Positions 27,001 through 30,000 of a stretch of DNA of 64,000 nt are shown one piece after another. Numbering within the stretch: position 1 is the first letter of the stretch; every line of letters starts with the position of its first letter. Position numbers: made by a program. This DNA is from a virus (lineage: Duplodnaviria > Heunggongvirae > Uroviricota > Caudoviricetes), in the IMG/VR virus record IMGVR_UViG_2721755660_000001; one strand, 5' to 3'.

Positions 27001-30000
27001 TTCTTACATTAAAATCAAGTAAGTCCGACTTTAATGCAAAGCGCGGACTGTATGTTGCCAGTATGATTAATAAAGCTTTAAAGGGGCGTTTTAATTATGG
27101 TCAACAGTTATCGAGTTCCAAACTCAGAGATGGAGAATATTTCATCTCATTACCAGTGAAAAATAATGAAATTGACTGGTTTTTTATGGATAATTATATA
27201 GAAGAGCTGGAAGCGGCCCATATAGAAGAGCTGGAAGCATACCTGATAGCTGCTGGGCTGAGTGATTACCAACTAACGGAAAAAGATTATCTTATCCTGG
27301 AACATTTTAAAAATATTGAATTTTCAGGCTTTCCTGTTACTGAGTTATTCTCAGTGTGCAATACAGGAAACATATTGTCTAGAGACATCATAGAAAATAG
27401 TGGGGATGTTCCTTATCTTTGTGCTAGCCGTGATAATAACTCTGTTAGTTCTTATATCGCCTATGATGACTCACTCTTGGAAAAAGGGAACTGTATTTTT
27501 ATTGGTGGTAAGACATTCGTTGTAACTTATCAGGAGCGAGACTTTTTTTCAAACGACAGTCATAATTTGCGACTCTATGTTAACAATGAGGATGGAAGGA
27601 CAAAGTTTGCTTATTTGGGCATTATTTCATGTATTTATAGGTCTATTTCACATAAATATTCATGGGGGGATAGTGTTAGTAATAGAAAAATTAAGAACGA
27701 TGTTATTTGGTTGCCAGTGAAAAATAAGTCACCTGACTTTTGTTATATAAATGACCTTATTTCAGTTGTTCATAAGCTTGTCATTAAAGATGTTGTCCAG
27801 TACGCAGAACGCAAAATGAACGCATACAGGCAAGCTATAACAAGTCGCGGTTATGATGATTCTGGTGTCAGTTAAAAAACATTTTACAATCGTAAAAATC
27901 CTCATATCATGATAAGAATGGTTACATTGCCACGCTGCTTAACCCGCCGATGCGCGGGTTTTTTGTATCCGGAATTCTGTGGGTTACCCTGCCCCCCTTA
28001 GAAAGGTGCGACAGCAATTAATAACAAAATCTTAAAAATCGCATATGGCACTATTAGTTTTCTAAATATTGTATATTTTAAGTATTGCAGGATAACCCTG
28101 TAACGAAGTTTGCGTAACAGCATTTTGCTCTACGAGTTTGCCAGCCTCCCCCAGTGGCTGGCTTTTTTATGTCCGTAGCGTCAAAGCAGCAATGGCGCTG
28201 GGGCGTCGTGCAATTGGCGTTGAGCTGGAGAGCGGGCGTTTTGAGCAGACGGTCAGGGAAGTTCAGAATGTAGTCAGTCAGAACGGATGATATTGCAGAA
28301 TTAGTTACGTACCGTTATTATCCTGCGCCCGGCCCTTTAGCTCAGTGGTGAGAGCGAGCGACTCATAATCGCCAGGTCGCTGGTTCAAATCCAGCAAGGG
28401 CCACCATCACATACCGCCATTAGCTCATCGGGATAGAGCGTCAGCCTTCGAAGCTGGTTGCGCGGGGTTCGAGTCCTCGATGGCGGTCCATTATCTGCAC
28501 ACTGCGTTGTTAGCTCAGCCGGACAGAGCAATTGCCTTCTAAGCAATCGGTCACTGGTTCGAATCCAGTACAACGCGCCATATTTATTTACCTGGCTCGC
28601 TTTTGCGGGCCTTTTTTGTATCCGCGCCACGCCCGGCGCATATCAAAAACCACAGAGCTTTTCAGGGGGGAGCTTACTGGATGGTCAGTGTGACTTTCTC
28701 TGTGGGCTGGTCACCCCCGGGCGCAGGCTCACCCACTAAAAGGAAAAGTCACGATGTTTGGTATTTTCAAAAAGAAAACCCGCAGAGCAGCAACTGAAAT
28801 TAAAAAGTTTGAGAAACGCGATCTGGCACAGGCGGTTATTAATGCTGCCTACCTGGTGGCCTATGCAGATGGTGAATGTGAGACTTCAGAGAAAGCGAAG
28901 ATCGAACAGGTATTACGTAACCAGCCAGCATTGTCCGCATTTACGTCAGAAATTAATGCCATCAGTGCCACGATCACAGGTCAGCTTGACACCAATTTTA
29001 AAATTGGTCGTCGTGCAGCGTTGCGTGAAATTGAAGATGTGAAACACGATACGCGTGAAGCGGAAGATGTGCTGGATGTGGCGGTGGCCATTGCTGAAGC
29101 AGATGGTGAAATTGAGCCGGAAGAGCGTAAGGTTCTGGAAGAGATTGCTGGTGTTCTTGGCCTGCGACTGGAGAACCACCTGTGACGGTAAAACTGCGTC
29201 TGGCCGCTGTGGCACTCCTGCTGTTTCTGGTGGTGATGGTGGATTTCACCAGCAGGATCATGTCGGTGCTGGCGGATGGAGTGCTGGTGGTCGGTATTGT
29301 GGTGGTGCTTTTTCCTTTGGTGAAAAAGGACATGCCAGGTAGTTAACCGGGTATCAGTTACGCCCAGAAAATTTTAATTGTCTCACAATTCAGTCAGTTG
29401 ACAGTTGCCTGTCAGACTGAGCATTTGTTAAAAAAATTTCGCATGGTGAATCCCCCTGTGCGGAGGGGCAATCAGCAAGTAGGTATATGGGATAATTGCG
29501 GATTCAGGTGCTGATACTGAATTCACCGGGAGGCACCCGGCACCATGCAGGTAAGCAGTGTAAATGTTTACATAAGCAAATCCCCTCACCGGAGGGGATT
29601 TTTTACGCCCAAAAATTCCGCGTATGGTGTTGAGATTGAAAGCCTGGTGCTGGAGATAAATGTACCGACATCATGATAAAAAAACGCCAGCACAGAAGAG
29701 AACGGGAAAACGAGTCTGACGCTGGCGTGGGGATATTCCCCGTGGAGAAATGATATGTAACACATATCGGGAGTATTTTTATATAAAAATGATAACCATT
29801 GTCAATCATAACGGTCGGGAATGATGACGTTTATGCATCAGAGCCATCAGTAATTAACGGGTGGCTTTTTTATTGTTGTCAGCTTCCGGATAACGGGAGA
29901 CGGGGTATGTACCAGATGGAAAAAATCACAACAGGTGTGTCATACACCACGTCAGCGGTGGGGACGGGATACTGGTTACTGCAGCTGCTGGACAAAGTCT

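Follow-up and report, generated by a model that had tools for sequence, protein, structure and literature searches.

The 64,000-nucleotide stretch analysed here (the window), taken from the IMG/VR virus record IMGVR_UViG_2721755660_000001 (Caudoviricetes), carries a restriction–modification operon in which the gene for a fused nuclease and methyltransferase (RM) is followed by the reading frame of a specificity subunit (S). The subject of this report is a tandem repeat of two 24-bp units in the S frame. This repeat is real. In the helix (CR1) that spaces the two target-recognition domains (TRD1 and TRD2) of the subunit, it constitutes a recurrent variation point of very recent date. By analogy with the EcoR124I/II pair, we consider it rather probable that this in-frame, copy-unstable repeat serves as a ruler which re-targets restriction and methylation while the recognition domains remain untouched. 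The main features are as follows.

24151..26721, plus strand: RM gene, whose product joins a PD-(D/E)XK nuclease (motif NRPD...LIEYKG) to a gamma-class N6-adenine methyltransferase (motifs DFATGSAGLL, LNPPYS)
26712..27875, plus strand: reading frame of the specificity subunit S, 387 codons followed by a stop codon
27177..27251, plus strand: CR1 helix of S in the AlphaFold2 (AF2) model, residues 156-180, 25 amino acids (aa)
27198..27221, plus strand: repeat unit 1, ATAGAAGAGCTGGAAGCGGCCCAT, encoding IEELEAAH; the unit that is duplicated exactly in three- and four-copy alleles
27222..27245, plus strand: repeat unit 2 (terminal), ATAGAAGAGCTGGAAGCATACCTG, encoding IEELEAYL
27738..27845, plus strand: CR2 helix of S, residues 343-378, 36 aa; antiparallel partner of CR1

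The original prediction had placed the repeat at 27198-27245 with the translation IEELEAAH/IEELEAYL, and both proved exact when the sequence was read again. The two units are arranged head-to-tail, agree at 21 of 24 positions, and correspond to residues 163-178 of the S reading frame, counted from 26712. Tandem Repeats Finder reported a period of 24, 2.2 copies, and a score of 69, and a second repeat search paired 27196-27219 with 27220-27243 at 88% identity. A 17-mer shared by the units has exactly two occurrences in the window. When up to two mismatches are allowed, its chance expectation is 0.02 ± 0.14, and none of 100 dinucleotide-preserving shuffles contained two or more matches.

The S reading frame is matched by Pfam Methylase_S in two stretches and has the order TRD1 (about aa 14-150), CR1, a linker helix (aa 190-199), TRD2 (about aa 204-337), and CR2 (aa 343-378). 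In the AF2 model of the window S, which was computed from 75 homologues and reached a pLDDT of 92, the repeat is part of the CR1 helix, as fits the earlier claim that it lies between the two target-recognition domains. It fills 16 of the 25 CR1 residues (two thirds). A Foldseek search with this model retrieved the Type I HsdS structures 1ydx, 1yf2, 2y7c (EcoKI), and 7bst (EcoR124I), and also the S chain of BsaXI (8w0p_C). Nothing in NCBIfam matched S, and sequence searches of the PDB with RM and S as queries gave no matches. Because a sequence-level match to the BsaXI chains is lacking, the window system is assigned to a different subfamily from BsaXI.

The original prediction had argued from classical Type I S subunits; an assignment of the operon to this class is rejected here. 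The RM protein matches the PADLOC Type IIG REase-MTase profile PDLC03616 from end to end (E = 3e-232), whereas it scores only 36 bits against TIGR00497 (hsdM), for which the cutoff is 243. The match of its N-terminal PD-(D/E)XK domain to VRR_NUC is weak. S matches the PADLOC "Type II specificity subunit" profiles PDLC03591 and PDLC03593 (E ~1e-24), and no hsdR was found among the annotated neighbours of the operon, which are phage genes. Because of the RM fusion and its profile, the profiles and fold of S, and the absence of hsdR from the annotated neighbourhood, we classify the system as a BcgI-like enzyme of Type IIB (RM + S), encoded in the late region of a lambdoid Escherichia coli prophage. 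The window copy keeps the nuclease and methyltransferase motifs of RM, as does the family at large; RPD / EYK, DFATGSAGLL, and LNPPYS are each retained in at least 90% of 60 aligned RM orthologues.

Copy number of the repeat

A BLAST comparison with complete E. coli genomes identified two records which are 24 bp longer than the window at this site and which, on reading, have three units. Besides the additional 24 bp, strain SCU-104 (three units) has no mismatch to the window over 3231 bp, and strain JNEC-KY173 (three units) has three mismatches. Four units are present in three independent assemblies that show 0-2 mismatches to the window over about 3 kb, two of them being free of mismatches in about 3.0 kb. 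All extra units of the three- and four-unit alleles are exact copies of unit 1, and the S frames of these alleles are open and adjoin the RM gene. With the unit number called from the match spans in the records (50 vs. 67 nt), 23 complete E. coli genomes have two units and five have three; together with the three-unit variant allele L006, three-unit forms make up 6 of 29. Among protein clusters, P0015 (84 members) has one unit, P0003 (330 members) two, P0005 (on 107 contigs) and P0007 (on 69) three, and P0001/2 four.

An assembly artefact can be rejected, given that the two- and three-unit forms occur in many independent complete genomes and the four-unit form in three assemblies. The same pair of recognition domains is found with two, three, or four units, and a single unit is found on a sister allele with a sister TRD1 (P0015). 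The original prediction had regarded the repeat as a variation point and had proposed a comparison of homologous S genes for their copy number. This comparison returned one to four units and not invariably two, and the alleles that differ in copy number while having identical recognition domains bear out the claim. It is further backed by the one-unit sister allele and by the recurrence of expansions in unrelated lineages.

The repeat is the exact joint between three types of TRD1 and two of TRD2, with divergence starting just before IEELEA and just after LEAYL. These joints argue that the repeat is also a conserved crossover point of recognition-domain shuffling. One could therefore propose that its main role is to provide homology for the shuffling of TRD1 and TRD2, with copy changes arising as a by-product of unequal crossover. 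The position of the joints speaks for this proposal. However, the isogenic series of two, three, and four units, without any single-nucleotide polymorphism in the flanks, represents copy change without domain exchange, and we consider a primary role in shuffling quite improbable. Shuffling at the repeat is, moreover, compatible with a ruler function.

The repeat motif is ancient. The family consensus, F-I-AELEAER-IAELEAYL, consists of two 8-residue units, and the LEAYL motif of the terminal unit is kept family-wide. Of the 104 close clusters, two units are found in 76, three in 19, four in four, and one in five. A scan of one genome per species (61 species) yielded 37 with two units and seven with three, the latter including metagenome-assembled genomes (MAGs) of Saccharibacteria and Flavobacterium sp. 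as well as Vibrio tetraodonis. Two units are thus the default state of the family. At the DNA level, units 1 and 2 are identical at 22-24 of 24 positions in every three-unit species, as compared to 15-20 of 24 for the last pair, which argues that the three-unit gains are young and independent. Overall, the sequences point to frequent, independent, and young unit expansions around a two-unit ground state. Copy variants on a near-identical background were found for at least four backgrounds: E. coli TRD1a/2A, E. coli TRD1c, Salmonella (two, three, and four units), and the Microcystis-type pair P0018/P0019 (two and three units).

The prevalence of two units (76 of the 104 close clusters, 37 of the 61 species) and the youth of every three-unit array would also be expected if only the two-unit form built a productive (RM)2S complex. 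The repeat would then be an in-frame attenuation or on-off switch that modulates activity and not specificity: gain or loss of a unit would mis-space the two RM subunits, and restriction and methylation would be lowered or abolished. The lower confidence of the four-unit model (see below) points in the same direction, and in work of Gubler and Bickle from 1991, engineered EcoR124 S subunits outside the natural range of two to three repeats were reportedly impaired or promiscuous. Against such a switch, three-unit alleles are common in E. coli, both among the complete genomes (6 of 29) and on contigs (107 for P0005, 69 for P0007). The three-unit loci L002 and L005 have an open S frame, an RM gene annotated as intact, and an in-frame upstream ATG, and show no signs of decay. 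In addition, expansions recur in many lineages. We thus regard attenuation as unlikely.

Helix length and the recognition site

In the AF2 models, each unit adds eight residues to one continuous helix that joins TRD1 to TRD2 and is packed on CR2. With four units, CR1 is a continuous helix of 41 residues as compared to 25 with two units. CR2 has 36 residues in both models, and its sequence is the same in the aligned two- and three-unit alleles.

A helix rises by 1.5 Å per residue, and each 8-residue unit would make CR1 about 12 Å longer and turn it by about 80-100 degrees. Units are gained and lost presumably by slipped-strand mispairing or by unequal recombination between the identical stretches of 19-21 nt. 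A longer CR1 should shift and rotate TRD2, together with its bound RM subunit, relative to TRD1; the enzyme would keep both half-sites and would need a longer non-specific spacer between them. The precedent is the pair EcoR124I/II, where two vs. three TAEL repeats in the same helix change the recognised site from GAA N6 RTCG to GAA N7 RTCG (PMC3874165). On the EcoR124 scale (4 aa per bp), each unit of the window repeat would add 2 bp to the spacer, and on pure helix geometry up to 3 bp. By analogy only with this precedent, the length of the helix would determine the length of the spacer in the recognised site; a search for methylome or cleavage data on the alleles analysed here yielded none.

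Several points weigh against the ruler. When 8-32 aa were removed from the C-terminal end of CR1 in a half-S construct of BsaXI, the N5 spacer stayed the same, and the authors of that study doubted that the length of the CR helices alone sets the gap (PMC9159934). That experiment cut a free helix end, whereas the change in window-type alleles is an internal insertion. For EcoR124 itself, the adaptation of the coiled-coil register is still unexplained (reviewed in PMC3874165), and in the window family the 8-residue period is at odds with a heptad coiled coil. In the four-unit model, the inserted stretch has a pLDDT of 77-89, the pTM drops from 0.71 to 0.57, and CR2 is not lengthened in parallel with CR1. 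The youth of all cross-species three-unit arrays agrees with a rapid turnover, but would be seen as well if the variants were mildly deleterious and short-lived. A methylation motif of the E. coli or Salmonella alleles was looked for in the literature without success; a paper on enterohaemorrhagic E. coli O145 deals with a different, PstI-like prophage system.

The BsaXI truncations would also suit a neutral length polymorphism, with specificity and activity staying the same while the 24-bp direct repeats simply slip and a helix or hinge absorbs the additional residues. The BsaXI structure does have a hinge halfway along CR1 (PMC11997821). In the window family, however, the models predict a rigid, continuous helix for the repeat, packed on CR2, and not a loop. 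The difference between one and four units (17 to 41 helix residues, about 36 Å) would be hard to absorb if the two RM subunits are both to reach target adenines at a fixed distance. In EcoR124, a single 4-aa unit already alters the specificity. We consider neutrality improbable, and the ruler is the reading that we retain.

The RM/S junction and the simple-sequence repeats

Four further features belong to the operon.

24160..24669, plus strand: tract of about 72 heptanucleotide units (GACCAGC), one of which (24230-24235) has 6 nt; translated as (DQRPATS)n
26712..26718, plus strand: candidate -1 slippery heptamer G GGA AAG, which abuts the RM stop codon TAA (26719-26721); a -1 slip enters the S frame
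26724..26762, plus strand: stem-loop of 13 bp (26724-26736 pairs with 26750-26762), 5 nt 3' of the heptamer
27941..27967, plus strand: intrinsic-terminator-like hairpin with T-run, 3' of the S gene; likely operon end

The S frame is -1 relative to RM. It is open from 26700, has no ATG, GTG, or TTG before 26781, and encodes conserved sequence from 26712. The conserved S peptide GK(V/I)xxxLxxKLxxVEWGE(F/Y) starts exactly at the heptamer. The stem-loop has a folding energy of -24.4 kcal/mol (z = -3.1). Junctions elsewhere read A AAA AAG NNN TAA in other E. coli alleles, C CCA AAG TGA in H. pylori, and G GGA AAG TAA in Microcystis. In a survey of 79 loci from diverse bacterial groups, with RM frames of about 680-720 aa where complete, a heptamer GGGAAAR or CCCAAAG was found at the 3' end of RM in 78, and it abuts the stop codon in 74. 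The base before GGA is always G, though the encoded amino acid varies. A Shine-Dalgarno-like element is located 9-19 nt 5' of the heptamer at 55 of the 79 loci.

A hairpin of 12-13 bp is present 5-6 nt 3' of the heptamer in all 82 sequences that were folded. In an alignment of 84 sequences, 91% of the cells are paired, compared to 33-47% in slid controls. Forty-nine cells have changed on both sides of the stem, against 11.8 ± 3.2 after shuffling (none of 500 shuffles reached 49), a covariation signal that must be read with the overlap of the stem with conserved codons in mind. Rfam contains no known element at the RM/S junction. Taken together, these data make the junction a candidate -1 programmed frameshift cassette that is conserved across many bacterial groups. 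Frameshifting would give RM and a predicted RM-S fusion, a route to the 2RM:1S composition.

The cassette resembles those of dnaX and of the phage lambda G/GT genes, which combine an X XXY YYZ heptamer with a stem-loop 5-6 nt downstream and often an upstream Shine-Dalgarno-like element (10-15 nt). We take G GGA AAG to be the lambda G/GT heptamer and A AAA AAG that of dnaX. Unlike in both of these, the shift would here fuse an enzyme to its DNA-recognition subunit, and the heptamer abuts the 0-frame stop codon. Literature searches for a published frameshift in restriction–modification genes found none.

The main rival is termination-reinitiation at the codon that overlaps the RM stop. This codon is AUG in 5 of the 79 loci and otherwise GUA or AUA. 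Reinitiation leaves the invariant G GGA AAR and the hairpin unexplained. Transcriptional slippage was rejected as a general entry into S, being possible for A7 alleles only and not for GGGAAAG. For the H. pylori relative, Krebes et al. described an S gene without a start codon and judged the system inactive; it was engineered for activity (PMC3936762). The native DNA of H. pylori J99 is mostly methylated at TCA N6 TRG (PMC4490391), which fits natural recoding at C CCA AAG TGA (L009, 3495-3566).

A second small hairpin (GCGGGAAAGTAAATTCCCCGC, 26710-26730) was seen only as a terminator-like match on the minus strand; it could sequester the heptamer, and is a possible competitor of the 5' arm of the stem that follows. 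In the RefSeq annotation, the S start is placed at an internal GTG (26790), and in the three-unit strain SCU-104 the S gene is divided into a "pseudogene" and a fragment despite its intact frame. A frameshift cassette would account for the frequent mis-annotation of this family's S genes and for their being called "inactive", and would also show how one RM:S ratio can be hard-wired.

The GACCAGC tract is located near the start of RM. While RM orthologues begin with M-x-x-SIEP, the window protein begins at ATG 24151 and continues with LP, (DQRPATS)n, and SKSRKSVKSVEP, and it is in frame from this ATG through the 7-nt repeat. In other strains, the tract has 23-120 units and occurs in all three phases. 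Upstream of it are two ATGs (24143 and 24151), spaced by 8 nt, which provide two of the three frames with a start. The tract thus probably causes frame-shifting phase variation of RM. RefSeq has a minus-strand "YXWGXW repeat-containing protein" called across the 7-nt repeat (24149-24679), and places the RM start 30-110 codons too late (loci L001-L008).

Sister S alleles with the TRD2 type 2B have a third repeat, an 8-nt sequence (GCGGACTC)n which directly follows the 24-bp repeat (L007, 5579-5660; L008, 5603-5660). The protein clusters show one to three copies of GLADSRTR, which it encodes. The tract of L007 is out of frame, which truncates S after CR1; the product is possibly a half-S subunit.

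The operon region (23100-28600) follows the genes for the Q antiterminator and hok/gef and precedes a tRNA-Met(CAT)/Arg/Arg cluster. In Shiga-toxin phages this place is taken by stx, and in the sister locus L007, stx2 is immediately downstream. Because the operon occupies this late-region slot, its expression may depend on the late promoter and Q. The deposited phage PhiR12_3 has an identical copy of the operon.

When the repeat, the junction, and the heptanucleotide tract are combined, a more far-reaching reading emerges, which we put forward only tentatively and would not favour at present. It is that the repeat is a family-wide, rapidly resettable ruler, which sets unchanged half-sites at different spacings (e.g., N6, N8-9, N10-12), inside a frameshifted RM-S fusion that acts as a complex of RM and RM-S, to which the E. 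coli copy adds the 7-nt on/off repeat. If true, a prophage could change its specificity in frame on clonal time-scales.

Comparison with known systems

How the length of the S helix sets the bipartite gap is unexplained even for EcoR124 and is disputed for Type IIB enzymes (BsaXI). The alleles described here form a natural isogenic series of two, three, and four units that do not differ otherwise across about 3 kb, together with a one-unit allele on the sister TRD1, so that the question becomes directly testable. A ruler, if confirmed, would offer a cheap route to engineered Type IIB specificities, and Shiga-toxin-type prophages would by this means diversify the epigenome and the phage and plasmid barrier of their E. 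coli hosts.

Among restriction–modification systems, the BcgI-like enzymes BcgI, BsaXI, and Hpy99XXII (JHP1364/JHP1365) share with the window system an RM protein of about 680 aa and an S subunit (about 370 aa) arranged as TRD1-CR1-TRD2-CR2. BcgI and BsaXI are (RM)2S enzymes that cleave on both sides of a bipartite site and methylate both strands. The one characterised relative, Hpy99XXII of H. pylori, has two units and recognises TCA N6 TRG (PMC3936762). An H. pylori relative, likewise with two units, shares the locus architecture, and over both recognition domains its S has 48% identity to that of the window. Unlike these systems, the E. coli copy is phage-borne and has a translated N-terminal 7-nt repeat and a copy-variable CR1 repeat.

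In phasevarions, Type I and Type III restriction–modification genes contain short repeats, the number of which changes from strain to strain (PMC7383803). To this kind belong the 7-nt tract of RM and the 8-nt tract of the sister S alleles. The 24-bp repeat differs from them in that it alters the length of the protein and not its expression, and it never breaks the frame because its unit is a multiple of three.

The closest parallel to the 24-bp repeat is found in EcoR124I/II (Type IC HsdS). Both carry a tandem repeat, in frame, in the conserved central helix that joins the recognition domains, both have natural alleles that differ in copy number alone, and the S fold is the same (7bst is among the top Foldseek matches). 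The window unit is 8 aa (24 bp) long, compared to 4 aa (12 bp) in EcoR124, and is present in one to four copies. EcoR124I/II is an R2M2S enzyme whereas the window system is of Type IIB (RM + S), with a much shorter CR1 (25 aa). Expansions of the window type recur across many bacterial groups, while the EcoR124I/II variants are confined to one plasmid family. The effect on the spacer has been measured for EcoR124I/II and is predicted by analogy for the window family. On this analogy, the 24-bp repeat would be a further form of the EcoR124-type ruler, here in a Type IIB system.

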